From a virus: a DNA stretch of 32,153 bases. The stretch is taken from UHGV virus genome UHGV-0053799, one strand, 5' to 3'. Position 1 is the first letter of the stretch, and each line of letters opens with the position of its first letter. The notes below the pieces were generated by a model, which had not been told where the DNA came from, did no database searches, and saw only the letters and a program-made list of their open reading frames with translations. Below are positions 6,476-32,103 of the stretch, piece by piece. The position numbers and the translations under genes were made by a program.

Positions 6476-6785
6476 AGTCCTGATTTGTACTCACTCATTT
6501 TCCGACTGACAATTTACTTAGCCCAAAAGCTATCAAATCTGACAGTCTGCTTTGAGCGAGGAGCGGACATTGCTAACAGCGTTTTATGTGAATTAACAGG
6601 GAGTAGGTCAACGTAGCGCTAGTGGAGTGTATTCTGGCTTAAAGTGTGGAGCAGTTGTCAGATTCAATGCTCATTGCAAAAAATTGTGTTCTAAAGAGGG
6701 CTGTTATATGTTATAGGTTGTTAAGTACCATCGGTGTAAAATACACTTAGAAGTGTCAAACAAGATCGTTCAAAAGGAAGACAAA

Positions 6786-7043
6786 ATGAATAACCAGCAG
6801 TTTAGGGATTTTTTGCGCAAAAATGCACATATTGTGGATTCCAATTGGAATCCAACAGATGCACAGCTAGATGAAATCAGAGCAGCAATACAGAGAGAAC
6901 TAGATCTAGGTAATAAGATAAACTATAGCTGCCTTCAACATATCATTATTCGCATTACTGGCACTACTAGGGTAATGATATTTGATAGCGTTGATAATAG
7001 TGATTTAAACATGCTATTAACTGCAGCAACAAAAAAGAGTTAA
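6786..7043 (+). CDS. Hypothetical small protein (cargo, first gene of a two-gene cassette)
   Basis: ATG at 6786 preceded by AAGGAAG (6774-6780); 85 aa, no TM segment; AT-rich; the track ORF from 6753 begins with GTG and lacks an RBS. Confidence 0.55.
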   Translation: MNNQQFRDFLRKNAHIVDSNWNPTDAQLDEIRAAIQRELDLGNKINYSCLQHIIIRITGTTRVMIFDSVDNSDLNMLLTAATKKS

Positions 7044-7046
7044 TAA

Positions 7047-7748
7047 ATGGAAAATTTGGAAGAAAAGCTTTCTGCGAAGAAAGCTTTGTTTATTTCATCT
7101 GTAAGAAAATTTCTCTCGTCTAAAAACAGAGATAATTTCATAGATTGCATGATCAATGGTACCGCCTATTTCAATGAGGCAGAAAAAATGGTGGGTAATA
7201 GTAAGCTACAAGGTAAGCACAACGATGGTTTATGGGTAACTGACTTAGCCGAGTCTTGTGAGGCAATACTTGACTCTTATCTTCTGCATATTGAATTTAT
7301 CAAGTCACACCATGAAGACATGATGGGTGAAAGTTATAAGAAACCAAACCTGCATGCCCTTTCCAGTATGCAAAGAATGGTGAAGATGTATTGTCAGAAA
7401 GAATCATCCAGTCACCTGAGAGAAAGATTCTTAAAAGCTAACTTACCAACAAAGGGTTTTGACGTGGCTCACAGAGACGATATTGATACTGCAAATAAAT
7501 ATATAACATTAGGTATTGGGTCAGTATTAGTTATAATGTCATTTGCTTTTGCAATGTTCATGGATAATCCTTCGTATTTTAAAATCTTTATAATAAGATC
7601 AACTTTTGCTGTTGGCTGTGCAGCCTTGGCCTCATTTGTTCCTGGATGGATAAACGTTAACGTAAAAGGGTATGTAAAAGCAGGAGGAGCCATTGCTATT
7701 ATTTTAATATTTTATTTCTTTAACCCCCCTGCAATGCTGATTGGCTAA
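7047..7748 (+). CDS. Hypothetical membrane protein: soluble N-terminal domain (~155 aa) + C-terminal 2-3 TM helices (cargo)
   Basis: 233-aa ORF starting 3 nt after the upstream stop; hydrophobic stretches YITLGIGSVLVIMSFAFAMF, FAVGCAALASFVPGWI, AGGAIAIILIFYFF; a 60-nt sample has 28% G+C. Confidence 0.6.
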   Translation: MENLEEKLSAKKALFISSVRKFLSSKNRDNFIDCMINGTAYFNEAEKMVGNSKLQGKHNDGLWVTDLAESCEAILDSYLLHIEFIKSHHEDMMGESYKKPNLHALSSMQRMVKMYCQKESSSHLRERFLKANLPTKGFDVAHRDDIDTANKYITLGIGSVLVIMSFAFAMFMDNPSYFKIFIIRSTFAVGCAALASFVPGWINVNVKGYVKAGGAIAIILIFYFFNPPAMLIG

Positions 7749-7832: not shown

Positions 7833-8227
7833 CGTCCCCCTGTAAAATTGAATTTTTGAAGTATGTATTTTTCTGAGAAAATTAAAAAATCCAGCTCAAC
7901 TGAAATTGTACATCATCTATTTGGATATAGTTTTTGTTATACCAAAATATTCCTTTTCATCGCGAGGTAAAGATAACTGCAAATTGTAAGCACTAGAACG
8001 TTCATAGCAGACTTCCAACCACTGCTCGCTCTCAGTCCAGCCTTGATGGATCGCGCAATATGCCCACTTGCGTCTTTTCGAACGATGCGCAGTTGCGGCC
8101 CAATGCATACCAAGGGCTTGTGACGAGCGTTAACGTTCAAACGTCTGCTCTTGGCACAGAGCGAACTGTCAGATTAGTTTTTACTCTGTGCCATAGATGT
8201 ATAAACTCACATCAGAGCTTATACAAT

Positions 8228-8755
8228 TTATTGCGGTATTTCCGGCCATTCAGGATTTGCAGGATCCACACGACTGACCAGAACGCTGTAGCGTTCCCAT
8301 GCTTCCAGTCGGCTACGCTCCTCATCTGTTGCCATGTTCAGTCTGACCGCGCGCTCCAGCGGCAAAATCACGGATTCAGCATCTGCAAGAAGTCTGGCTT
8401 TCCGAATTTCTGCCTGCTGCTGCAATTCCTCTGCCGTATAAATGCGTTTAGTCACTGTGCCGTCCTTAAACATCCAGTTCCCTGAAATGTCCGCCCGTCG
8501 GTTAGCAGTAATATCCGGCACTTCAACAACACTTAATCCATCCGGTCTGATAGCTGTCACATCCTTTTCCACATAGCGGATGATATTATCTTTGTCGTAC
8601 GCTATTTTTATCGTGTCATCAGCAAAATACTTTTGTTCTTCGTACCAGTTCTTACCATCTTCTGTAAAAAACCAGACAACATCAAACTCCTTTGTCAATT
8701 GATATTGTTCAACCGTTTTTGGATTACCTGCCGTTATATTTATCAAATGCTGCAT
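8228..8755 (-). CDS. G: Tail fiber assembly protein G
   Basis: 175-aa ORF immediately downstream of H; N-terminus [19 protein letters not shown] resembles P2 gpG. Confidence 0.85.
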
Positions 8756-8758
8756 AAA

Positions 8759-10969
8759 TTATACCTGCGCCACGTTGTACCATGTCCCGTTAATGTATTT
8801 CTGAACCGGTCTGTAATATACGCCACCAATGTTATCGGCAGAGTTTGAGCCTGTATCCTGAACAATAATGCCGGTATATACGCACCCGGACGGTGCCTGA
8901 TGTGTCCATGTCATGCCATTGTTCGCAGGTTTGTATGTGGCCGCACCACCAAGCCGGAGATCCCTGACATAGCGGGAGTCAAAATTGCTGAAATTTGATG
9001 GTATCACCTGCCCGGTAACCCGTAGTGCATCAGACTTAAGCGTCATCAGGTCTTTTGTTGTGCTGCCAGACCTGATGCGCCATTTAAAATATTCATTGCC
9101 ATTATCACCAGTTTCAAACCACATGTATGAGTCAGAATCAGCATCTGAATCATTTTTAAATCCAATTTTCGCCCAGTCAGTGTTTCTTTCCCAAATCAGG
9201 AAGGCATCATTGATAAATTTTATGCTGCCTGACATGCTTCCGCCTGATAATGCCAGAGCAAGAATATCCGCAGGTGTTGGCTTTCGTGATGTGGTATAAA
9301 ACTCTGACCAGTCAGCCTCAAATCCATACCCATCACGTGCCGACCTGTAAAAAATCCCCCTGTTTTTATAATCCACAAGAAACTGCATTGCCGGACAACT
9401 TCCCTCACCCGTGTAAAAATGCAGCACCATTTTTGATGCTCCGCCATCCTGTGCACAATAAGCACCACTATCCCAGTTCCATCCTACCGCTTTATTATTT
9501 GCAACCGTATTTCCTGTTTTCCCTAATGCAAAAGCCGGTTGCTTATTTTTCGTATTGTAGTCGCGTCGCCAGCCCGGCGCATAATCAGCTCCGTGATTGA
9601 TATACGTGAATTGCGCACTGGTGGTACCACCACCGCTTGATGTACTCGGAGTGGTCACACGAATGGTCATTGCAGCTTTAACGCCCATAACCTCAATCAC
9701 GCAACCTGCAAGATGAATCGTCCCACAGTCAGTATCGGTAATAATTTTGTTATTACCGTATGACCAGGAACACTTGCACATCCAGTAGGGATGATTAAAG
9801 GCTCCCTGAGACTCCAGCCAGTCAATAAACTGCGCGGTTGTCCAGTTTCCGGCTTCAGTGCTCAAAGCACCGCTATAAGCACGACAGGCACCGATATTTT
9901 TCGTGAAGGTATCCTTTCCCGGAATATCCGCACCGTTCTGATCTTTCTGAAGACGTTTTTCAGCATTGTCATAGGCAGACTTCACCGCTTTTGGTGTTGC
10001 AGCCAGCGTTTCAGAATCGCTGTTGATGGCACTATTGAGCTGAACAAGACCTTTCCGCGCCGTGGTGGCGTCCTGTGCAGTGTATTTCCCGTTAGCAAGG
10101 TCATACGCTGTCTTAACCGCCTTTGGCGTTGCCGCAAGCGTTTCAGAATCGCTGTTGGTGGCGCTACTGAGCTGGACAAGACCTTTTCGCGCGGTGGTGG
10201 CGTCCTGTGCAGTGTATTTCCCGTTAGCAAGGTCATATGCTGCCTTTACCGCTTTTGGTGTTGCGGCGAGCGTTTCAGACGTGCTGTTGGTGGCACTACT
10301 GAGCTGGACAAGCCCTTTTCGCGCTGTGGTGGCATCCTGCGCAGTATATTTCCCGTTAGCAAGGTCATACGCGGCCTTTACCGCTTTCGGCGTTGCGGCC
10401 AGTGTTTCAGACGTGCTGTTGGTCGCACTGCTTAACTGAGTAAAACCTTTGGCGGTCAGCGAGGCGTCCGGGTGACGTCGTGACTGTTCATGTTCTGCAA
10501 TTTTGTCATCAACGTAATCCTGCGTTGCCATCACCGTTGTGGTGTCAATGGTCAGCTCCACTGAGGCTACACTGCTGACTATGATGACCATGCGGCAGGT
10601 CTGCGAACGCCCTGAGCCTTCGGCAAGGGCTGGCTTATAACTTTCGGCCATGTTCGCCACGGCAATTAGCGTTCCCGCATCATCGTACAGGCCAAGTTCA
10701 CGCATCCAGAAACCGCCCACCTCCGGCGGAATAACCAGCTCTGCGATAATATAATTACTGTTTCGTTTGTCCTGGCTGATTTTGTTCAGCGTATGTCGCC
10801 AGACTTCGTGGATAAGCCCGGTCTGTCCGGCATCCGGGACAGGCAATTTACCACCGCCATCCCCGACGGCCATCGTGGTAATGTTGACCTTCCGCCCTCC
10901 CGGTGCGGTTGCCGCTGCCAGCTTTGCTGCACCGGCAGTGGTGATAACGGTTTTGAATTTTGTGCTCAT
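8759..10969 (-). CDS. H: Tail fiber protein H
   Basis: 736-aa ORF; N-terminus as in P2 gpH; internal 44-aa repeats (SETLAATPKAVK...YDLANGKYTAQDATTARKG), the common phage tail-fibre repeat; distinct C-terminal domain. Confidence 0.9.
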   Translation of the reverse strand: MSTKFKTVITTAGAAKLAAATAPGGRKVNITTMAVGDGGGKLPVPDAGQTGLIHEVWRHTLNKISQDKRNSNYIIAELVIPPEVGGFWMRELGLYDDAGTLIAVANMAESYKPALAEGSGRSQTCRMVIIVSSVASVELTIDTTTVMATQDYVDDKIAEHEQSRRHPDASLTAKGFTQLSSATNSTSETLAATPKAVKAAYDLANGKYTAQDATTARKGLVQLSSATNSTSETLAATPKAVKAAYDLANGKYTAQDATTARKGLVQLSSATNSDSETLAATPKAVKTAYDLANGKYTAQDATTARKGLVQLNSAINSDSETLAATPKAVKSAYDNAEKRLQKDQNGADIPGKDTFTKNIGACRAYSGALSTEAGNWTTAQFIDWLESQGAFNHPYWMCKCSWSYGNNKIITDTDCGTIHLAGCVIEVMGVKAAMTIRVTTPSTSSGGGTTSAQFTYINHGADYAPGWRRDYNTKNKQPAFALGKTGNTVANNKAVGWNWDSGAYCAQDGGASKMVLHFYTGEGSCPAMQFLVDYKNRGIFYRSARDGYGFEADWSEFYTTSRKPTPADILALALSGGSMSGSIKFINDAFLIWERNTDWAKIGFKNDSDADSDSYMWFETGDNGNEYFKWRIRSGSTTKDLMTLKSDALRVTGQVIPSNFSNFDSRYVRDLRLGGAATYKPANNGMTWTHQAPSGCVYTGIIVQDTGSNSADNIGGVYYRPVQKYINGTWYNVAQV
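9955..10450 (-). repeat. 132-bp tandem direct repeats (about 3.7 copies) inside H
   Basis: cgtttcag(a/ac)... recurs at 10007, 10139, 10271 and 10403 (period 132 nt); in-frame, encoding the 44-aa fibre repeat. Confidence 0.85.
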
Positions 10970-10979
10970 TATTCCTCAC

Positions 10980-11510
10980 TTATCCGGGGTAAACCGTAAT
11001 TACATCGCCGTCGTAAGCCACACCACCGGCGAACAGGTAGCCGGGAATGTCCCGGGTAATGTTCAGGCCAATAAGGTGGCGGCTTGCAGGTTTGGCATCA
11101 GCAATCAGCCGTTCCATTTCCTGATACATTGCCTCTGTGATGCCGCTTTCCAGTACACCAATATCAAGCCGGAAGGTGCCGGGCGGGTCACTGTTTTCCC
11201 ACCACTCCGTCACATTGATGAGATAGCCGAGCGGCTCCACCACACGCCGGATTGCACCTATTGTGCCTTTATGACAGTGGATGAAATACGCATCGCGGAT
11301 AACGGCGCGTTTTGTCGCTTCCGGCCACTTTTCATCCCACCTGTCGACCGAAAACGCCCACGCCAGCCACGGCAGCAGATTTGCCGGACAGGTATCCGGG
11401 TTCCACAGCTCACGAATACTGACCGGCGTTTTTTCAATTTCCGCACAGGCTTTTGCGGCGGCGACTTCAAGCGGTGATGAGCCGGTCGGCAGCAGTCGCG
11501 AATCACTCAT
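10980..11510 (-). CDS. I: Baseplate assembly protein I
   Basis: 176-aa ORF in the P2 I position; sequence fits gpI as recalled. Confidence 0.9.
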   Translation of the reverse strand: MSDSRLLPTGSSPLEVAAAKACAEIEKTPVSIRELWNPDTCPANLLPWLAWAFSVDRWDEKWPEATKRAVIRDAYFIHCHKGTIGAIRRVVEPLGYLINVTEWWENSDPPGTFRLDIGVLESGITEAMYQEMERLIADAKPASRHLIGLNITRDIPGYLFAGGVAYDGDVITVYPG

Positions 11511-12411
11511 CCGAGCCTCCGGTCACGACGCTGTATTCGGTACAGAAAGACGCCTGCGTATTGTTGAGCACGATGTCGGCCAGCGGTGCAGCCAGTTCGA
11601 CACGCTGCACGCCTTCCACATGCAAAGCGGCATAAATGGCAGACAGACGGATGTCGCGCCCCAGCCGGTGCTGTGCCGTGATGTATGCTTCCAGTTTTTT
11701 CACGGCGGCCGCGCGGATGGGTTCACTTTCGGGACCAGGGTAAAGGTAAAGCGTGGCGTTTATCTGGTATTCAACAATGGCGGCAGACTGCACGGTCACG
11801 CGGTCGGCCACCGGTCTGACGTCCTCGCCATTCAGGGCGTTACGCACCACCGCCAGCAGGTCTTTGGATGCGACACCGTTATTCTCACGTGACAGCACAG
11901 AGATGGTGACGCAGGCCGGAGACGGACTGGTGACAGAGATATCCGCGACACGCCCGTCAGCACTGCGACCATGATACTGATAGGCACCCACCGACCCGGC
12001 GACGCTTAAACCTTCAAACGCCTGCTGAATACGCAGACGATAATCGGTATCAGATTCCATCACTGCCGGTGTCGGCGGGATGGTCGAATCATCTGCCGGG
12101 GTGATAGTCAGACGCGTGGTGTTGTAATTGGCACCAATCACATCAAGGTCATTACCGGCGGCACAGGCCAGCATCACCGCCCGTGCGGCCTCATTCACAC
12201 GCTGACGCCAGATAAGCTCACGATAAGCATTTTCTTCCAGCAGTTTGACGAGAGGCTCAGATTCCAGTGTCAGGGTACGGGCGACCGCCTCCTGCTGGTC
12301 TTCCGGGTAAAGGGAAATCAGTGTCGCCTTGCGTTCGGCGAGAATGGTTTCAAAGTCCAGCTCCTCGACCACATCCGGTGCGGGTAGCTGGTTCAGGTCG
12401 ATAATCGGCAT
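11503..12411 (-). CDS. J: Baseplate protein J
   Basis: 302-aa ORF, same length and position as P2 gpJ. Confidence 0.9.
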   Translation of the reverse strand: MPIIDLNQLPAPDVVEELDFETILAERKATLISLYPEDQQEAVARTLTLESEPLVKLLEENAYRELIWRQRVNEAARAVMLACAAGNDLDVIGANYNTTRLTITPADDSTIPPTPAVMESDTDYRLRIQQAFEGLSVAGSVGAYQYHGRSADGRVADISVTSPSPACVTISVLSRENNGVASKDLLAVVRNALNGEDVRPVADRVTVQSAAIVEYQINATLYLYPGPESEPIRAAAVKKLEAYITAQHRLGRDIRLSAIYAALHVEGVQRVELAAPLADIVLNNTQASFCTEYSVVTGGSDE

Positions 12412-12415
12412 GGTT

Positions 12416-12763
12416 TCAACTCACAGGGATGGTTAACGAAAGTGGCTGGCCGGTGTCGTTGTGCTGACCGGTTAACGTGACCGTCATTCGCCCGTCAAAA
12501 CTGCGCGCCGTGGTGACGGATGACAGGGTGACGCGGGGTTCCCATTTCAGCACTGCCATGTAACAGGCGACCTTAATCTGCAACTCAAGCGCCGGGGTCT
12601 GCGGCTGGTCAATCATTGACGCCAGCAACGAGCCGTAATCACGACGCATCACCCGTGAGCCGACGGGGGTACGCAGGATATCGCCGATACTCTGGCTGAT
12701 ATGCTCAAGGTCAGTGACAGTCAGGCCATCACTGCGATTCATTCCGAGATAACGCGCAGTCAT
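12416..12763 (-). CDS. W: Baseplate protein W
   Basis: 115-aa ORF, same length and position as P2 gpW. Confidence 0.9.
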   Translation of the reverse strand: MTARYLGMNRSDGLTVTDLEHISQSIGDILRTPVGSRVMRRDYGSLLASMIDQPQTPALELQIKVACYMAVLKWEPRVTLSSVTTARSFDGRMTVTLTGQHNDTGQPLSLTIPVS

Positions 12764-13395
12764 AGAGGTCCCCCGGTTGTGCCGCCGCTGTCGCCGGGGG
12801 GTTTATGGGTAGGCAGTACCTTACCGTTTGATGAGAGCTCACCGCCGGTGTGTTCAATGTTGCCGCGCATCGTCCCGCCCTTCTGCACTTCCAGCGTGCC
12901 GGTAATCAGCCTGTTGGTGCAGACCACCTCCGGTGTGTCCAGGGTGATGCGGGTTGATGCTTTCACCATGACCACCGGCACCGTGGCAGTAACAGAATCA
13001 GAAGCCGTCACGCTGGCCGTTTTAACTCCGCTTACCGTGAGCGCGCTGGTTTCAGGTTCATACTCAATCACCGCCCCGTCAGGGAAACGGATATGCAGGG
13101 CATCCGCCGACGCAGACGGCGCGGGGTTATCGCCGGAATAAATCCCTGGCAGAACGAACGCCGTGTCGAGTTCACCACCCACGGCCAGAATCAGCACCTG
13201 TTCCCCCACGGAAGGTGCCCACCATGTGCGCGAACGCCCGGCGCGATGGGTCAGCCACTGAAGCCAGTCGGTGCACATGCCGCCGGTCTGCACACGGCAG
13301 CGACCGGCATTAAGGTCGGTTTCGACGATAATGCCGGTGCGGATCATGTTGCGCAGTGCGCGCGCGAGTTCCTGAATATTTGCGAGAGTGTTCAT
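12760..13395 (-). CDS. V: Baseplate spike protein V
   Basis: Track ORF extends to 13413; start placed at the in-frame ATG 13395 (MNTLANIQELARAL...), as I recall P2 gpV; 211 aa. Confidence 0.85.
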   Translation of the reverse strand: MNTLANIQELARALRNMIRTGIIVETDLNAGRCRVQTGGMCTDWLQWLTHRAGRSRTWWAPSVGEQVLILAVGGELDTAFVLPGIYSGDNPAPSASADALHIRFPDGAVIEYEPETSALTVSGVKTASVTASDSVTATVPVVMVKASTRITLDTPEVVCTNRLITGTLEVQKGGTMRGNIEHTGGELSSNGKVLPTHKPPGDSGGTTGGPL

Positions 13396-13478
13396 GCGTG
13401 TGAGATTGCACAATATATAAAAGTTATGCTATCTGGATTCATTTGTAGAACGACCATACAACATTCGAGGAGAGCGTA

Positions 13479-14264
13479 ATGTTCAGTGATAATGTGACTA
13501 ATGCGTGGTGGTTTATCTCTTTGTATCTATTTTTATTAATAGCATTAACATTTGTTACCTTTGGTAAAAGTAATCTTATGAGGTTTATTGCACATCATTT
13601 CAATCTTGAGTATTCAGACAGAAAGTTAAAAATGCTCGACAAAAAATGGCGCGACATTCAACTATTTAAAATAATTAACGGAATCAATGTATCAAGCATC
13701 GAAGATGTGAGAATGATACAGCAGGGGCTGATTGATGGAAAACTAAAAACATCGTATTTTTTCCTTACTCGCTTCTGGGGTGACATAACAAAACCACCAC
13801 ACATAATTAAAACAACAATTGTAATTCTGGCCAGTATTATTTATATTCTCTTCGCATGTTATATACACAATGAACAATCCGCTATAGTAAGGGATGCCAT
13901 AGGTATACCATATAAAAATATGATGTACTATGTTTATAGTGACAAAGTTCTTTTATCCTTCAAAAATAAAACGGTTGAATTTAATAAAACTTATAGCCTT
14001 GCCGATTGCAAGAGTCTGCAAAACGTATTTATAAAAGACACACTTCCCGAGATCGCCTGCAATAAGCTCTTACAGCTAAACAAGGAGGACTCCGAATGGT
14101 TAAGTCAGGAGATTAAAGATAATAACAGCCACAGAAAAACATTATTAATAATATCCCTAACCTATTTCATTTCAGGTCTGCTTATATTCCTGTCATATAC
14201 AAAATTCCTTTACACCAATAAGAAGGTTTTAGAATACAAAGCATCAAATAAAAACCACTCATAA
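13479..14264 (+). CDS. Hypothetical membrane protein, 3 predicted TM helices (cargo at the orf30 position)
   Basis: 261-aa opposite-strand ORF with GAGGAG RBS (13466-13471); hydrophobic segments WWFISLYLFLLIALTFVTF, IIKTTIVILASIIYILFACYI, TLLIISLTYFISGLLIFLSY; a 60-nt sample has 28% G+C. Confidence 0.6.
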   Translation: MFSDNVTNAWWFISLYLFLLIALTFVTFGKSNLMRFIAHHFNLEYSDRKLKMLDKKWRDIQLFKIINGINVSSIEDVRMIQQGLIDGKLKTSYFFLTRFWGDITKPPHIIKTTIVILASIIYILFACYIHNEQSAIVRDAIGIPYKNMMYYVYSDKVLLSFKNKTVEFNKTYSLADCKSLQNVFIKDTLPEIACNKLLQLNKEDSEWLSQEIKDNNSHRKTLLIISLTYFISGLLIFLSYTKFLYTNKKVLEYKASNKNHS

Positions 14265-23828: not shown

Positions 23829-24527
23829 TTACAACTTCGTCATTGCTGACTCAAATTCATCATTAAATGGCTTAATTTGAGATGATGTTAGTTTTTTTAC
23901 GAACTTTTTTGTTGTTGTTTGAACTACGATTCTACCTTCACCAAGAGCATTCCCCTGGCATTCTTTTACGAACCATTCTTGAGTTACTGATGTGGTAATA
24001 CTCATTGGGATCACAAGCGTTAATATATCTCCGTAGTCTTCTAAAACATGCGGTAACTTGCCAGAGATAAGCGTCCTGGGGTTTACCAATATATTCATTG
24101 CTTTATTATTAGAAAATTGCAACACAACTGATTGAATATTACTCCTTACTTTTCTTTTGTTTGTTATGGTTATTGATATTGCTGTATCTGTAGTGCTAGG
24201 TAAGTACATTGATGGCATTAACACCATGCTATATCGAATAGCAATTTCTTCTGAATTTTCCTTTAGCGAACGGTGTGCTAACAACAATGATGTCGCAACA
24301 GCAGAAAATGCCCCCACCCCAGAAACCCAAGTACCCAACATGGTCAAAAAAGGTATTGTAATTAATTGGTATTTAGTGTCACCATTCAAACCAACACCAC
24401 TATAACCCACGTAACACCCTATAAAAAAGAATAGACAAGCCGTTATTAAAAAAAATAATAAATGCATAGAACTTATATTTTTAAATTTCAGCAACAAACC
24501 TCTTAAAATATATTTGCATCTCTTCAT
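23829..24527 (-). CDS. Hypothetical membrane protein, 2 N-terminal TM helices + ~130-aa soluble C-terminal domain (cargo)
   Basis: 232-aa ORF; hydrophobic LLFFLITACLFFFIGCYVGY and ITIPFLTMLGTWVSGVGAFSAVATSLLLA; a 60-nt sample has 18% G+C. Confidence 0.55.
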   Translation of the reverse strand: MKRCKYILRGLLLKFKNISSMHLLFFLITACLFFFIGCYVGYSGVGLNGDTKYQLITIPFLTMLGTWVSGVGAFSAVATSLLLAHRSLKENSEEIAIRYSMVLMPSMYLPSTTDTAISITITNKRKVRSNIQSVVLQFSNNKAMNILVNPRTLISGKLPHVLEDYGDILTLVIPMSITTSVTQEWFVKECQGNALGEGRIVVQTTTKKFVKKLTSSQIKPFNDEFESAMTKL

Positions 24528-24625: not shown

Positions 24626-25357
24626 TCACTCACTTATAATTGATACAACCTCACCTGTTTCTACATTGACACGCGCAGCAATCGTCTGTTTCACCACTCC
24701 GCCATAAGCATTAGTTCCGCGAAACGTGGTTTTCACAATGGCATGCGGGTCTTTATTCAAAATCAGATGATATACCGTTGACACATGTTTATAAGATGAA
24801 TCATCGTTCATATTATCTTTAATTAGTTTTTCCAATGGACGATAAGAACCATCCCAACCACTAAAATTACTCTGAAATGTATCAAGATTGATTTTATTGT
24901 TTAGTGACTTCGGGTCATTTTCATAATCATTAAAGCACCACCCAAGAACATCACCGAGTTTCAACTCATCATCTTTGGTAAATGTATACTCACTCATGCA
25001 GGCATAAAACGCATCTGACGCGGCGGCTGGAACTTCCTTAAAATCAATGTAACTATTCACAATATCGTGTCGTGTTTTCTTTGACTCGTTCCGATATTCC
25101 TTGAGTGTTTTTTCACCATATTCGAATGTTTTTTGGACTTTGTGTTCTGCAACGGTTGATGTTTCAGTTTTAGCAACTGGCTGGCTTTTTTCTGTTGGAT
25201 AGAGTATTGAACCAATTATGCTCAATACAAAACCACCTCCGAGATAAACCGCACTTGCACGTTTGCGGTTTGGCATTCGCACCAGTGATGGCCTGATTAA
25301 CCCGATGAAGAAAGCAACGAAAAAAGCGAGTGATAGAAAAGCGATTATAGTATCCAT
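24626..25357 (-). CDS. Hypothetical membrane-anchored protein, 2 N-terminal TM helices + ~180-aa soluble domain (cargo)
   Basis: Start placed at the in-frame ATG 25357 (MDTIIAFLSLAFF...) because AAGGA lies 6 nt upstream; the track ORF extends to 25399 without an RBS; 243 aa. Confidence 0.55.
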   Translation of the reverse strand: MDTIIAFLSLAFFVAFFIGLIRPSLVRMPNRKRASAVYLGGGFVLSIIGSILYPTEKSQPVAKTETSTVAEHKVQKTFEYGEKTLKEYRNESKKTRHDIVNSYIDFKEVPAAASDAFYACMSEYTFTKDDELKLGDVLGWCFNDYENDPKSLNNKINLDTFQSNFSGWDGSYRPLEKLIKDNMNDDSSYKHVSTVYHLILNKDPHAIVKTTFRGTNAYGGVVKQTIAARVNVETGEVVSIISE

Positions 25358-25580
25358 AGCTATCCTTTTTGCATCATCCACATAAAAAATCGACCTCATG
25401 TTAGCAACAGGATGCTTACTTTTGAATATTTGTAAGTTGTTAGCTCTCCAACCTAACTCTTTTCAACCGTCAAAAACCAGCACCAACGCAGTAAAAATAT
25501 GTCTGTCAACTAACGCCTCGCTTCGCTCGTTGTTCAACCCCGCCAGCCCTGAAAACAAGTTTCACGACTGGCGGCGTTCT

Positions 25581-25787
25581 CTATCGTCTGCGTGGTGGTG
25601 GCGCAACTCTGGACTGACCGATATCGTTAAACCGTCTGTAATTATCCCGGACTATTTCGGCACACCCGACCAACTCGTCAGGCGTCAGATTTTCGTTGAG
25701 CATAATCTGCTGTAGACGGTGAACAATGGCCATCAGTTTGATATTTTTAGTTTTATGGTGCGGTATCTCGCCTGGTATTCTGTGCAT
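25581..25787 (-). CDS. Small hypothetical protein (68 aa)
   Basis: ATG at 25787 overlaps the TAA stop of the upstream ORF (TAATG), suggesting translational coupling; no recognisable motif. Confidence 0.3.
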   Translation of the reverse strand: MHRIPGEIPHHKTKNIKLMAIVHRLQQIMLNENLTPDELVGCAEIVRDNYRRFNDIGQSRVAPPPRRR

Positions 25788-26242
25788 TATCCAAGCCACC
25801 CATTTTGCTTTGCACGCTCCACCTGTTCATCTGAATAGTTCCATATCCCATCCGTAGCAACCACTGCCCCGCCAGACATCCCCGTCTCTGGTTCATACAT
25901 AACAGCAAGGCCGAGCTGATGCATAATCTCATGATTAATTCTGAATACCAGACCACGTTCACTAAGTTCTTTCCAGTTCACAATCTTATATGCGCCCGTA
26001 TTAAGCAGCTCAATACTTAGCAAGACATAATCTTCCAGCCAGTCTGACAGGTCAGTAACATCTGTTATCCGGGCTTCAACCTTTCGCCCCGTAAACACAC
26101 CCTGCACCCATTCATGCAAAATCAGCGTGTCCCCGCGCTCATAATTACGGTCATTTTTCCGAAACTCTGCGCGTTTCTTTCCTTCCAGCACAAGGTCAAA
26201 ATATTTGGCGTGCAGCTTTACCTCGTGAATTTTTGCCATCAT
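25787..26242 (-). CDS. ASCH/DUF3850-like (PUA-fold) protein with a C-terminal extension
   Basis: GKKRAEFR fits the ASCH motif GxKxxExR; GGAG RBS; start ATG overlaps the A stop codon (ATGA); C-terminal extension contains HEIMH. Confidence 0.65.
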   Translation of the reverse strand: MMAKIHEVKLHAKYFDLVLEGKKRAEFRKNDRNYERGDTLILHEWVQGVFTGRKVEARITDVTDLSDWLEDYVLLSIELLNTGAYKIVNWKELSERGLVFRINHEIMHQLGLAVMYEPETGMSGGAVVATDGIWNYSDEQVERAKQNGWLG

Positions 26243-28524
26243 TTCCACTCCATTACTATTGAGAATCCCGGCCACTCATCAGCGACCGGATACGTGAATT
26301 TTTTCCCGTCGTAATTTACGGTCGCGCCACGCGCCAGCGCCTCAAGCTCCCATCGCTGCGGCCTGATACCGTTCTGAGCGAGATCAACGCGGATACGGGT
26401 GATTTGCAATCGTTCAGACCGGGTCAGTCTGGCCGATGGTGCAATTTCATGTGGTTTTAACGGGCTTCCGTTTCTTTGCTGACGATTTGGTGTTCTCAGG
26501 TCGTGTTTTAATGCCCCCCTGAGCGCCCTCACGACCTCCGTGTCGTTCCATTCGATAACACCGTCATCAACCAGATTAAGCACTGCTGCGGCGTGTTCAG
26601 AAGGTGTGGGAGCCGGTAACGAAGTATCACCACCGGTGAGCTTTCCACAGTTATTGACAGGACTCCGAGGCGCGGCGATGCCGCTTTTTAAAGTCAAAGG
26701 CTCAACGACCGGAACTTTCGGCACAATGCGCCAGTCCGTCGTTCTGGTGATATGAATATGACGCGCGCCGAGATGCGGCGCGTAAATGCCGACCACTCTC
26801 TCGACTTCTTCCTCGTACTCGTTAACTTCATCCGACGGACTACGGGCAACCCTGACAGTCTGACAATCGCGCGGGACATTTGCCCCACCCTGCGCGCTGA
26901 TATACAACGCAAAATCACCACTGTCTGCGGCGGCGCGTGCAGCCTCGACGCGCTCGTCAAACTCATCAGCAATGCTGACGCCGCGAGGCAATTTGCGTAG
27001 TTCACGGTAAGCCCCCATTGTCGGCAGACCAACCGTTTTAAATTGTGGGATGCGCCACGTTGACGCCCATGCGGTAACAGCCGCAGCAGTATCTTTAAGC
27101 GGTCTGCCGGTATCGTTATCGAGCTGACCATCCAGTGCATAGCCATCGATGTTTTTTGAGATGTATTTCGCGATATACCCCGCAGCACCGCCCTGGTTAA
27201 GGTGTTTTGCCTGAAAACGGTTTCGCGCGGCTCCTCTTTCGTCGCCATCCTCTTTGAGCGCATAGCGACGCATGATTTCGATAATCTGGTTACGCTGGCG
27301 TGGATTACAAAAAAGCATCATATGCCAGTGCGGCGTTCCGTCGTGGTGTGGCTCGACGACACGCAAACCGTAGACCTGTAAATCATTATCCTTGAATGCC
27401 GTGCGCATCAGGCTCCAGATGCGGCAGAGATAACGCTGCGCATCCTTTGGATTAAATGCCTCATCGTTCCAGCCGTGATTAAGCTGAACGGTTTTACTTT
27501 CGCCTTTTCTGACCTGACGAGTCGGGTGATACTTTGACGGCGCGGTCAGCGTGATAAACATCCCCACATCACCCTCTGCGGCGGCGTAACGCTCAATACC
27601 GGCAATGGTGTTCATCAGCTCCATCCGGCGAATTTCAGGATTAGAAATACTGCCCATCACCTTACTGATAAGGTCGATGCGCTCGCCGGTTTCCCTGTTT
27701 TCAAGGTCACACGATTTAAGAAATTCCAGATTTGCCTGGCGGCGTGCACGCACATCACGAATGGCATGTTTACTGGCATAAGGAGAACGGTCTTTATTCA
27801 CCTCCCCGACAGCAATCAGTAACGCCTCATGCCAGCGCATACGCTGGCCTTTGAGCTGATGAGTCCACCACTCATCGTTAAACAGACGGGCAATGGCAGA
27901 ATATGCCTGCCTCGTGGTCATCTGTCCTTTACGGTATTTTTTCCAGTAAAGCGGGGAAATATTGAAAGCACGTGCAGCGCCAGCAACATGACCATAGAGG
28001 TGAGCCTGCGCCTCATCCGTAAACAGCGATTCTTTTTCGCCATGTGCATCCACCCAGGCATCGCTGAGTTCCTCATACATCATGAAAAGCTGCGATGAGA
28101 TACGGGCAGCAAACTTTTTCAGCTCCTTGTCATTCATTCCCGGCAGGCGCGCATAGTGGTCACGCTCTGCCAGAAACAGTAACGACGCGTCGGTGTTCAT
28201 TTCATGGCGCTGATTCACACGCTCAATGCGCGGCCATAAACGACGCTGAAAAGTGGATGTGAGGAAATAAAACCCGTGCACCGGGCTTTTATTGCGCCGG
28301 ATGTAGTCATAGCGTGAAGTAAACAGCGAGCGCAAAAAGTAAGGCAGGCGGTTAATCGTGGATAAAACACCTTGCACCTGACGCATCTCGTCACGTGTAA
28401 GGGGTCTTTCGCGCCCGACGGCCTCGCGTGGCGCGTTCCATGCATAAGCACCGGTAAACGCCTTACCGGTGCCTGCAGCAAATGCTGACGGAGGGACAAA
28501 ACGCCCGGAGGCTTTAACGGCCAT
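26239..28524 (-). CDS. A: Rolling-circle replication initiator A
   Basis: Start placed at MAVKASGRF (28524), 761 aa; HUH-type motif TPHWHMMLF (about 27311-27334) and paired tyrosines YIAKY (about 27163-27177). Confidence 0.9.
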   Translation of the reverse strand: MAVKASGRFVPPSAFAAGTGKAFTGAYAWNAPREAVGRERPLTRDEMRQVQGVLSTINRLPYFLRSLFTSRYDYIRRNKSPVHGFYFLTSTFQRRLWPRIERVNQRHEMNTDASLLFLAERDHYARLPGMNDKELKKFAARISSQLFMMYEELSDAWVDAHGEKESLFTDEAQAHLYGHVAGAARAFNISPLYWKKYRKGQMTTRQAYSAIARLFNDEWWTHQLKGQRMRWHEALLIAVGEVNKDRSPYASKHAIRDVRARRQANLEFLKSCDLENRETGERIDLISKVMGSISNPEIRRMELMNTIAGIERYAAAEGDVGMFITLTAPSKYHPTRQVRKGESKTVQLNHGWNDEAFNPKDAQRYLCRIWSLMRTAFKDNDLQVYGLRVVEPHHDGTPHWHMMLFCNPRQRNQIIEIMRRYALKEDGDERGAARNRFQAKHLNQGGAAGYIAKYISKNIDGYALDGQLDNDTGRPLKDTAAAVTAWASTWRIPQFKTVGLPTMGAYRELRKLPRGVSIADEFDERVEAARAAADSGDFALYISAQGGANVPRDCQTVRVARSPSDEVNEYEEEVERVVGIYAPHLGARHIHITRTTDWRIVPKVPVVEPLTLKSGIAAPRSPVNNCGKLTGGDTSLPAPTPSEHAAAVLNLVDDGVIEWNDTEVVRALRGALKHDLRTPNRQQRNGSPLKPHEIAPSARLTRSERLQITRIRVDLAQNGIRPQRWELEALARGATVNYDGKKFTYPVADEWPGFSIVMEWK

Positions 28525-31089: not shown

Positions 31090-32103
31090 ATGGCAATCAA
31101 AAAACTCGATGATGGTCGATATGAAGTGGACATCCGCCCTACTGGACGTAACGGAAAACGCATCCGTAGGAAGTTTGATAAGAAAAGCGAAGCTGTCGCT
31201 TTCGAAAAATACACGTTGTACAACCACCACAATAAAGAATGGCTATCAAAACCAACAGACAAACGACGTCTGTCGGAACTGACACAGATCTGGTGGGATT
31301 TAAAGGGTAAACACGAAGAGCATGGGAAATCTAATCTTGGAAAAATTGAAATCTTCACAAAAATAACGAATGACCCATGCGCATTTCAAATCACGAAATC
31401 CCTTATCAGCCAGTACTGCGCCACCCGAAGAAGTCAGGGTATTAAACCTTCGAGTATCAATCGTGATTTAACATGTATTAGCGGCATGTTTACAGCCCTG
31501 ATTGAAGCGGAGTTATTCTTTGGTGAGCACCCTATCAGAGGGACAAAGAGGCTTAAGGAGGAAAAACCAGAAACAGGCTATCTCACACAGGAAGAAATTG
31601 CCTTACTGCTTGCAGCACTTGACGGCGACAACAAAAAGATTGCGATTCTTTGCCTGAGTACAGGAGCACGTTGGGGAGAAGCAGCTCGTTTGAAAGCAGA
31701 AAATATCATCCATAACCGCGTCACGTTTGTTAAAACGAAAACAAACAAACCACGCACCGTCCCGATCTCAGAGGCTGTTGCCAAAATGATCGCGGATAAC
31801 AAACGAGGTTTTTTATTCCCTGATGCTGATTACCCTCGCTTCAGACGAACAATGAAAGCAATAAAACCGGATTTGCCAACGGGGCAAGCCACACATGCAC
31901 TAAGGCACAGCTTTGCCACTCATTTCATGATTAATGGAGGAAGTATTATCACGCTACAACGGATACTAGGTCACACGCGGATTGAGCAAACTATGGTTTA
32001 CGCTCATTTTGCGCCAGAGTACCTTCAGGACGCCATTTCTCTTAATCCGCTAAGAGGTGGTACTGAAGCCGAGAGTGTCCACACAGTGTCCACAGTAGAG
32101 TAA
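31090..32103 (+). CDS. int: Tyrosine integrase
   Basis: 337-aa ORF with GGAGGG RBS; C-terminal catalytic region HALRHSFATHF...GHTRIEQTMVYAHF; same length and position as P2 Int. Confidence 0.9.
   Translation: MAIKKLDDGRYEVDIRPTGRNGKRIRRKFDKKSEAVAFEKYTLYNHHNKEWLSKPTDKRRLSELTQIWWDLKGKHEEHGKSNLGKIEIFTKITNDPCAFQITKSLISQYCATRRSQGIKPSSINRDLTCISGMFTALIEAELFFGEHPIRGTKRLKEEKPETGYLTQEEIALLLAALDGDNKKIAILCLSTGARWGEAARLKAENIIHNRVTFVKTKTNKPRTVPISEAVAKMIADNKRGFLFPDADYPRFRRTMKAIKPDLPTGQATHALRHSFATHFMINGGSIITLQRILGHTRIEQTMVYAHFAPEYLQDAISLNPLRGGTEAESVHTVSTVE

Follow-up and report, generated by a model that had tools for sequence, protein, structure and literature searches.

Genes and features of the H-G locus

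Within the window (the whole 32,153-nt stretch of DNA analysed here), which holds the complete P2 gene set, H and G are the tail-fibre gene and the chaperone gene of a P2-like E. coli prophage (Table 1). By the ORF coordinates, G begins 4 nt past the stop codon of H; on its other side, H is neighboured by I (10980-11510), J (11503-12411), W (12416-12763), and V (12760-13413), which is the V-W-J-I-H-G layout of P2, fiAA91-ss, and P2DC1. This operon position, together with a PF12571 N-terminus homologous to that of P2 H, marks H as a probable P2-type (Peduoviridae) gpH, and the profile match of G, its place directly 3' of H, and its variable N-domain and conserved C-domain likewise point to a Tfa (PF02413) protein. 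H is an ordinary, already catalogued patchwork fibre: NCBI has the identical protein on 52 E. coli contigs, where its annotation reads tail fibre protein. The exact G sequence was found on 142 contigs. Two long plus-strand ORFs within the repeat (9791-10435 and 10062-10439) are taken to be putative by-products of the periodic sequence and not genes, and the moron ORFs, when scanned with PADLOC and Pfam, gave nothing but ASCH/DUF3850 in one ORF.

Table 1. Coordinates of the genes, domains, repeat units, and shared DNA block at the H-G locus.
Feature	Position	Strand	H residues or length	Basis or remark
H, tail fibre	8759-10969	minus	736 aa	intact 736-codon ORF
G, tail-fibre assembly chaperone (Tfa)	8228-8755	minus	175 aa	Pfam PF02413 Caudo_TAP, E 4e-33
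N-terminal baseplate-attachment domain	10439-10969	minus	1-177	Pfam PF12571 Phage_tail_fib, E 2.7e-58
Array of 44-aa/132-bp PF03406 units	9950-10438	minus	178-~340	Tandem Repeats Finder, Pfam, repeat search
u1	10307-10438	minus		132-bp unit in protein register
u2	10175-10306	minus		132-bp unit in protein register
u3	10043-10174	minus		132-bp unit in protein register
u4, partial	9911-10042 (register); 9950-10042 (repeat part)	minus		ends in conserved KDQNGADIPGKD joint
Module C1	9515-9970	minus	334-485	Cys/Trp-rich, first part of Mu S'/P1 Sv'-like region; 8ju3 match
Module C2	9257-9514	minus	486-571	second S'-like part (Pfam gp37_C); PF12604, 8ju3
Module D	8984-9256	minus	572-662	NTDWAKIGFKND...YMWFETGDNGNEYFKWR segment common to P2 H and Mu S
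Module E, distal tip	8762-8983	minus	663-736	97% identical to Peduovirus P22H1 H 846-919
DNA block common with Peduovirus P22H1	8144-9018	minus	875 nt	blastn; H tip, G, and 84 nt downstream

In our preferred reading, which we consider probable, the trimeric fibre H and its chaperone G belong to an E. coli prophage that is P2-like (Peduovirus) and complete, and the fibre is built of interchangeable modules. The N-terminal domain, which a first-pass annotation had called P2-like, is so indeed, with 96.6% identity to P2 H 1-177, and the DNA of 10244-11600 is 96.8% identical to P2.

The repeat array and its dynamics

The repeat array of H is far beyond chance. Tandem Repeats Finder reported a period of 132 at 9968-10429, with 3.5 copies, 88% matches, no indels, and a score of 679; a repeat search placed 225-nt copies at 9962, 10094, and 10226, at a spacing of 132; and Pfam assigned four stretches of H to PF03406 Phage_fiber_2 (E 2.3e-80), a family of tandem ~42-44-residue units whose profile the H repeats match. 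The ~3.7 in-frame copies of a 132-bp repeat first reported are borne out, as three full units are followed by u4, which is repeat-like in about its first 31 residues only. The same repeats had been called near-identical at the DNA level, which they are not: the units are only 83-89% identical (u1-u2, 88.6%; u2-u3, 89.4%; u1-u3, 82.6%), and the longest exact matches between them are 44, 26, and 23 bp. The u1 and u2 peptides are identical, with all 15 nucleotide differences being synonymous.

The array would form a shaft of 44-residue PF03406 units, in each of which a single short helix is predicted at the same point of the register, and unit number would set only the length and reach of this shaft. 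An AF2 monomer model of residues 150-361 showed a helix recurring every 44 residues and nothing else; its mean pLDDT of 45.6 is uninformative, and shaft geometry and length per unit were not taken from it.

Repeat number is not invariant among relatives. Among the best 120 matches of ~8000 homologues, the ~99% identical fibres are 692 aa (17), 736 aa (98), or 780 aa (4) long, corresponding to 3, 4, and 5 units. P2 has 2 units, fiAA91-ss 3, H here 4, and two E. coli alleles 5, and 27 P2-like H genes of other Enterobacteriaceae, which share with H the strict 44-residue spacing, have 0-4. In each of the two 5-unit alleles (loci L007 and L008), one adjacent pair of units is 98-99% identical, and these pairs are recent duplications that arose independently. 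The H units are closer to the same-position units of P2, fiAA91-ss, P2DC1, and 12474III (93-98% identity) than to their own neighbours (83-89%), which argues for slow gain and loss of units and not for a rapidly slipping array; the units of H are old and diverged. The proposed role of the repeats as substrates for expansion and contraction therefore holds in that copy number ranges from 2 to 5 among relatives, but the process is slow. Since 132 is a multiple of 3, whole units are gained or lost in register, and the exact matches of 23-44 bp between units are long enough for unequal homologous recombination to be feasible. Judging from the end products, such recombination may occur either inside a single gene or between P2-like prophages that share a cell.

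A faster regime, in which the array is a contingency locus whose frequent slippage leaves the population heterogeneous in fibre length, would account for (i) the 3-, 4-, and 5-unit alleles in otherwise ~99% identical genes, (ii) the two independent fresh duplications, and (iii) the density of polymorphic sites, which is highest in the repeat region (14% of positions). However, the 4-unit form predominates (98 of the 120 best matches), the divergence between neighbouring units is considerable, and their counterparts at the same positions in P2, fiAA91-ss, P2DC1, and 12474III indicate that no homogenisation has taken place. Moreover, unit changes always keep the reading frame, so that the array would be unable to act as an on/off switch. 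We consider a fast locus distinctly unlikely, and the array does not appear to be phase-variable; in this family, the units are old and have diverged at synonymous sites, and repeat number would change only by the rare gain or loss of a whole unit.

A composite distal half

The C-terminal region had been described as rich in Gly, Trp, Tyr, and Cys, and all four are enriched in residues 334-736 relative to residues 1-333 (G, 10.7 vs 6.6%; W, 3.5 vs 0.6%; Y, 5.2 vs 3.3%; C, 2.0 vs 0.3%). It had further been described as unlike P2 H: when aligned, the distal half is indeed not collinear with P2 H, but residues 572-662 are 71% and the tip is 43% identical to it. The distal half is not one module; it consists of at least three parts with different nearest relatives.

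C1 and C2 align without large gaps to chain 8ju3 of the Mu G(-) fibre (domain i-Evalue, 4e-118). C1 shares about 80% of its residues with P1 Sv' and 74% with Mu S', is modelled by AF2 with a pLDDT of 82-95, and is found alone in many other fibres. C2 matches PF12604 over residues 485-577 (E 1.9e-7) and is modelled with a pLDDT of 80-88; a tract of 93% identity common with vB_EcoM-12474III stops at 9279. Module D, in turn, has counterparts in P2 H 395-471 (71% identity) and in Mu S 186-262 (70%), matches 5yvq residues 184-267, and is missing from both Mu S' and the 12474III fibre. Its Pfam match to PF21446 Gp34_trimer (25.5 bits) is under the gathering cut-off of 27, and its AF2 monomer pLDDT (45-57) is low and uninformative.

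The tip, module E, is probably the putative chaperone-docking and receptor-contact end of the fibre. It is 51% identical to Mu S, 43% to P2 H, and 36% to Mu S', aligns with the C-terminal end of chain 9cuy_c, the short tail fibre of phiTE, and has an AF2 pLDDT of 74-92. In every representative fibre that has it, E is C-terminal, bar one D-E fibre with extra residues after it. The final 11 residues of H (the KYINGTWYNVAQV region, 723-736 bar one position) are invariant in four aligned fibres.

We used the AF2 model of residues 335-736 solely to confirm fold matches, as C1, C2, and E are confident in it, whereas D and the relative domain positions are low-confidence; its rmsd to 8ju3 is 21.7 A. 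A Foldseek search with the H model returned 8ju3 (E 5e-33), 5yvq (1e-8), and the R2 pyocin fibre 6cl6 (7.5e-4).

A tip-plus-chaperone cassette

G is a chaperone of the P2-G/Mu-U type (74% identical to P2 G) and not of another class. Its C-domain (residues 101-175) is 83% identical to that of P2 G, whereas its N-domain (residues 1-100) is 95% identical to that of P22H1 G and 69% to that of P2 G; lambda Tfa aligns only to G 92-174. The DNA block shared with P22H1 is 93.4% identical by blastn, and the rest of P22H1 H is 73-82% identical to H or unalignable. Tip E and the G N-domain vary together: both are 95-99% identical in fiAA91-ss, P2DC1, and P22H1, and both are low in P2, Mu, and 12474III (tip E, 36-51%; G N-domain, 68-72%). 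Of H, the co-inherited cassette comprises only the last ~86 residues (~651-736), together with G. The suggestion that the C-terminal domain and G form a horizontally exchanged host-range module thus stands for the exchange of the distal half, but of this half only residues ~651-736 travel with G; the first-pass interpretation is partly supported, being right in kind and too coarse.

In the Mu S-U complex, the chaperone binds the tip of the fibre through its variable N-domain and drives trimerisation through its conserved C-domain (PMC9608196). By analogy with this complex (5YVQ), the G N-domain would dock on tip E and start folding from the C-terminus, and G may remain on the virion. The structure of the complex, PDB 5YVQ, was reportedly described by North et al. 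in 2019.

Comparison with known fibres and mosaic origin

P2 gpH/gpG (NC_001895) resemble H/G in operon position, in the N-terminal 177 residues (97%), in PF03406 units, in D, tip, and a conserved extreme C-terminus, and in the equal length of G. P2 H differs in having 2 units instead of 4, in lacking the 238-residue S'-like C1-C2, and in that its D and tip are set apart by about 120 additional residues; in P2 G, it is the N-domain that differs. The fibres of fiAA91-ss (NC_022750) and Peduovirus P2DC1 (NC_070905) are of the same type throughout, being 99% identical outside the repeat array, and their G proteins are 93-95% identical to G here. P2DC1 has 4 units, as does H, whereas the counterpart of unit 2 is missing from fiAA91-ss.

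The variable part of Mu S' (8JU3) and P1 Sv' is 74-80% identical to H 334-571, with the same junction sequence QNGADIPGKDTFTKNIGACRAYS, and these residues are homologous to a variable C-terminal part of the Sv' type. The Mu S' structure, PDB 8JU3, is said to be that of Mori et al. (2024, Virology 593:110017). In H, however, the S' tip is replaced and the 90-residue D is inserted before the tip, and the G C-domain is only 35% identical to that of Mu U'. H also has neither the invertible segment nor the alternative fibre end of the Mu system: a search of the entire window for the Mu gix sequence, with up to 3 mismatches allowed, found none, the gix-encoded FIQNLGLQE stretch is absent from H, and just one fibre end and one chaperone are encoded. 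Of the hallmarks of a Mu/P1 invertible segment (gix/cix sites, two alternative ends, and an invertase), both the sites and the ends are lacking, and we rejected a silent or relict segment for want of a gix site. Mu S-U (5YVQ) is similar to H/G in D, in the tip, and in G, which is 73% identical to U, both chaperones having a variable N-domain and a conserved C-domain; Mu S differs by about 160 residues between D and the tip, missing in H, and has no C1-C2.

With vB_EcoM-12474III H (NC_049457), residues 1-569 are common (92%), comprising the P2 N-terminus, 4 units, and C1-C2, but there an S'-type tip directly follows C2 and D is absent. Conversely, Peduovirus P22H1 (NC_049386) shares the tip and G (94% identity), but its H carries a single unit, and the body of this 919-residue protein is of quite another kind. 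H looks like a recombinant with parts of both the 12474III and the P22H1 kinds, as far as these alignments go. DNA identity breaks at about 10244, 9279, and 9018, and since the module boundaries coincide with these sharp drops in identity to different phages, the fibre was assembled by recombination at conserved joints, such as the KDxNGADIPxK linker. Distal-module matches in non-P2 prophages were sought among E. coli hits of 79% coverage; the one inspected is a P2-like prophage with a disrupted H and gives no evidence of cross-family transfer.

That P2, Mu, P1, lambda, and T-even phages have mosaic tail fibres in common has been textbook knowledge since the early 1990s (reportedly from Haggard-Ljungquist, 1992, and Sandmeier, 1994), and there is little new biology in H/G. 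The module map is nevertheless of use, as it places precisely the recombination joints (about 10244, 9279, and 9018), the linker KDxNGADIPxK, and the cassette (8144-9018). Those who engineer P2-type phages or tailocins could follow it by swapping residues ~651-736 together with G and by treating C1-C2 and repeat number as separate variables.

Receptor binding and host range

H is predicted to be a trimeric fibre on the virion that mediates adsorption, and the plaque-forming phage fiAA91-ss has a 99% identical H. In the fibre, the P2 N-terminal domain would plug into the baseplate and be followed by the PF03406 shaft, C1-C2, D, and tip E. By analogy with related fibres, H may have a role in receptor specificity and host range, and tip E with G would set primary specificity, probably for the LPS core. 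This assignment draws on the Mu S-U complex and on swaps between P88 and pro147, which traced host range to the last ~45 fibre residues, with residues 716-746 of the P88 fibre mapped as the determinant (PMC5285337). Across 98 same-length near-identical alleles, polymorphism is low throughout and highest in the repeats, and no clustering of the kind expected for a hypervariable receptor surface was seen on tip E or C1-C2.

That H is instead a decayed remnant in a cryptic prophage, with no functional fibre, we find scarcely credible. Some related E. coli prophages do have a broken H and an 's protein' pseudogene fragment, but no such support was found for H: its ORF is intact, the identical protein occurs on 52 contigs, the synonymous differences between u1 and u2 indicate purifying selection, the full P2 gene set is present, and fiAA91-ss forms plaques with nearly the same fibre. 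A more serious alternative, though still a doubtful one, is that C1-C2 (334-571) is the true receptor-binding domain, as assumed in Mu G(-) and P1 C(-), leaving D and E as only a folding nucleus and chaperone dock. Several results are consistent with this: across its 238 residues, C1-C2 is 74-80% identical to Mu S'/P1 Sv'; its fold matches 8ju3; C1 and C2 are confidently predicted as compact domains; and C1 occurs in very many fibres, as expected of a reusable binding module. Moreover, the part of Mu G(-) that switches host range includes the C1-C2 region, which could bind the receptor here just as well. A host range like that of Mu G(-) would then be expected, and Mu G(-) forms plaques on Shigella sonnei, Citrobacter freundii, and E. 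coli C; fiAA91-ss, with its 99% identical fibre, is linked to S. sonnei in literature titles. However, C1-C2 is internal, lying about 165 residues from the H C-terminus, whereas host range in the related P88 fibre maps to the extreme C-terminus (PMC5285337), and the chaperone co-varies with tip E and not with C1-C2. In 12474III, C1-C2 is 84% identical, yet the tip is different and the G N-domain only 72% identical.

Specificity residing in tip E and G therefore remains our preferred reading. It is conceivable, but unlikely, that the fibre carries two receptor-binding elements in series, namely an internal Mu S'-type C1-C2 knob and a P22H1-type tip with bound chaperone. One fibre could then read two different surface structures (LPS core or other), either one after the other or one instead of the other; the P2-type phage would have, permanently built into its fibre, the dual host range for which Mu relies on DNA inversion, and PF03406 unit number would tune the distance of both elements from the baseplate.

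The fiber module within the prophage

A complete P2-like prophage fills the window, from gene D (50-1213) to int (31090-32103), and the tail fiber gene H and chaperone gene G follow the standard V-W-J-I block, all on the minus strand. An identical H protein, named 'tail fiber protein [Escherichia coli]', is found on 52 NCBI contigs, and an identical G on 142; the host is thus E. coli, and databases already list the gene. The full module is present in 36 of 5426 complete E. coli genomes, with four or three PF03406 repeat units. H is a common, ordinary allele of a well-known family of mosaic fibers and is nothing substantially new.

Features of the fiber module, the 'moron' hotspots and a neighboring ORF
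Feature	Position	Strand	Remark
H	8759-10969	-	736-aa ORF
G	8228-8755	-	175-aa ORF
Phage_tail_fib	H residues 1-151	-	Pfam, E 3e-58
Phage_fiber_2 (PF03406), four copies	H	-	Pfam, E 2e-80
gp37_C	H residues 485-577	-	Pfam
Gp34_trimer	H residues 599-653	-	Pfam, below threshold
Caudo_TAP	G	-	Pfam, E 4e-33
ORFs at Z/fun position	6753-7043, 7047-7748	+	P2 'moron' hotspot
ORF at orf30 position (between V and S)	13479-14264	+	P2 'moron' hotspot
ORFs at tin/old position	23829-24527, 24626-25399	-	P2 'moron' hotspot
162-aa ORF	25787-26275	-	adjoins replication gene A; DUF3850/ASCH (Pfam, E 1e-17), DUF7415 (E 8e-14)

Two public records outside the Enterobacteriaceae by name, a 'Bacillota bacterium' MAG (L024) and 'Chryseobacterium sp. 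18061' (L025), contain P2-type H genes 76-78% identical to that of the window; most likely, these represent contamination or mis-binned enterobacterial prophage DNA. In a related P2-like prophage of E. coli 90-3040 (L037, 6532-8840), a 718-aa H overlaps an 's protein' pseudogene fragment, which suggests a frameshifted or rearranged fiber end; the same 79%-coverage pattern is seen in about 30 complete E. coli genomes.

The distal half of H is a mosaic

The first-pass annotation had described a P2-like N-terminus followed by a C-terminal region that is rich in Gly, Trp, Tyr, and Cys and unlike P2 H. Residues 1-177 are indeed 97% identical to P2 H, and residues 334-736 are richer in these four amino acids than residues 1-333. 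In searches against solved structures, residues 334-571 (module C, comprising C1 and C2) aligned with chain 8ju3, the fiber S' of the Mu G(-) orientation (domain i-Evalue 4e-118); residues 573-656 aligned with residues 184-267 of 5yvq, the Mu S fiber with its chaperone; and residues 666-733 aligned with the C-terminus of 9cuy, a short tail fiber of Pectobacterium phage phiTE (PMC11972413). AF2 modeling of residues 335-736 gave confident predictions for C1, C2, and E but a poor one for D; the best PDB fold matches to the model were 8ju3 (E 5e-33), 5yvq, and the R2 pyocin fiber 6cl6.

Segment-wise BLAST resolved the same modules: C is 84% identical to vB_EcoM-12474III H and 74% to Mu S', and about 80% identical to P1 Sv'; D (572-662) is 71% identical to P2 H and 70% to Mu S; and the distal tip E (663-736) shares 97% identity with Peduovirus P22H1 H, 51% with Mu S, 43% with P2 H, and 36% with Mu S'. 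Collinearity with P2 H is partial, extending to D and, more weakly, to E. The DNA tracts are sharp (P2, 96.8% over 10244-11600; 12474III, 92.9% over 9279-11600; P22H1, 93.4% over 8144-9018). The 12474III fiber consists of the N-terminus, four units, C, and an S'-type tip, without D, and in P2 H and Mu S, D is followed by 120-160 additional residues before the tip, whereas in the window C is joined to D and D to a P22H1-type tip. When 1.84 billion representative proteins were searched exhaustively, the repeats, C1 (about 338-485), C2, D, and E turned up combined in dozens of orders, with E being C-terminal in essentially all fibers that contain it.

The crossover site gix of the Mu G segment (TTATCCAAAACCTCGGTTTACAGGAA, L004 1681-1706) encodes FIQNLGLQE and sits between two copies of the linker motif NGADIP. 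In the window's H, the final PF03406 unit continues without a break through KDQNGADIPGKD, and the S'-type part then begins with TFTKNIGACRAYS; no gix-like site was found across the whole window at up to three mismatches; the S'-type part is therefore fixed inside a non-invertible gene. Recombination between the two NGADIP copies of Mu would delete gix, giving exactly this junction. Gene K of phage 186 has an annotated Mu-like inversion crossover site (L039 3963-3988), which is absent from the window's H.

Chaperone G and the fiber tip

G shares 74% identity with P2 G, 73% with Mu U, 55% with Mu U', and 44% with the 186 chaperone, and lambda Tfa aligns only with G residues 92-174. The N-terminal half of G is 95-97% identical to G of P22H1, fiAA91-ss, and P2DC1, which are exactly the phages sharing tip E, and only 68-72% identical to its P2, Mu, and 12474III counterparts; the C-terminal half shares 80-83% identity with P2 G and Mu U. 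At the sequence level, this pattern fits the published Mu model (North et al. 2019, as summarized in PMC9608196), in which the variable N-domain of the chaperone binds the fiber tip and the conserved C-domain drives trimerization from the C-terminus, with the chaperone staying on the virion. Of the proposed exchange module, the C-terminal domain plus G, the linkage of the tip with G holds, but only the last ~86 residues of H travel with G, rather than the whole 400-residue half.

We propose that tip E and G together would set primary receptor specificity, by analogy with the P2-like phage P88, whose host range was mapped to fiber residues 716-746 (PMC5285337) and which supports this assignment. 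The PF03406 units would serve as shaft spacers, and C1-C2 may be structural or a second binding element. The main alternative, that C1-C2, part of the region that switches host range in Mu and P1, is instead the real receptor binder, appears rather unlikely to us.

The repeat array is old and changes by whole units

Tandem Repeats Finder placed the array at 9968-10429 (period 132, 3.5 copies, 88% matches, zero indels), and a second repeat search gave the identical register over 9962-10450. In the protein, three complete 44-residue units begin at residues 178, 222, and 266, and a fourth, from residue 310, is repeat-like over ~31 residues, so that the earlier estimate of 3.7 copies over 9955-10450 was accurate. 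The repeats had also been called near-identical in DNA, which they are not: unit identities are 88.6% (u1-u2), 89.4% (u2-u3), and 82.6% (u1-u3). Units u1 and u2 (10175-10438, minus strand) encode the same 44-residue peptide while differing at 15 of 132 nucleotides, so all 15 differences are synonymous, a sign that the units are quite old and under strong purifying selection. The equivalent units of other phages likewise have identical peptides and synonymous differences. Such divergence would reduce recombination between neighboring repeats; it may have been selected or may just reflect age. Same-position units of P2, fiAA91-ss, P2DC1, and 12474III match those of the window at 93-98%, above the window's own neighbors, and the array is therefore not undergoing homogenization.

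Repeat number is not invariant across relatives. PF03406 units number two in P2, three in fiAA91-ss (which is without a counterpart of u2), and four in the window and P2DC1, and the 120 best database matches, ~99% identical to the window's H aside from the array, include H lengths of 692 (n = 17), 736 (n = 98), and 780 aa (n = 4). Two 780-residue alleles (L007 and L008) each contain one adjacent unit pair that is 98-99% identical, and the pairs differ in sequence type, so they represent two independent recent internal-unit duplications. In other Enterobacteriaceae, the 27 P2-like H genes analyzed contain zero to four copies of the motif, strictly 44 residues apart. RecA-dependent exchange has a minimal length of ~23-27 bp, and the exact inter-unit matches of 44, 26, and 23 bp suffice in length for unequal exchange of this kind. 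Gain and loss thus involve whole units and keep the reading frame, but are rare; the repeats are substrates for expansion and contraction, as had been suggested, though in an array that seldom changes and is not homogenized. Because repeat number varies and collinearity with P2 H is only partial, the first-pass reading holds in its main lines once corrected as described here.

Other features

Opposite the array, the plus strand has long open frames at 9791-10435 (214 aa) and 10062-10439 (125 aa), which probably arise because the sequence is periodic and poor in stops, and are unlikely to be genes. Anti-phage genes are frequent at P2 hotspots; the ORFs at the three classical 'moron' hotspots of the window had no Pfam or PADLOC matches. 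Two of them (233 and 261 aa) are membrane-associated in appearance; Peduovirus P2DC1 also has the 96- and 233-aa pair, and locus L008 has another copy of the 261-aa ORF.
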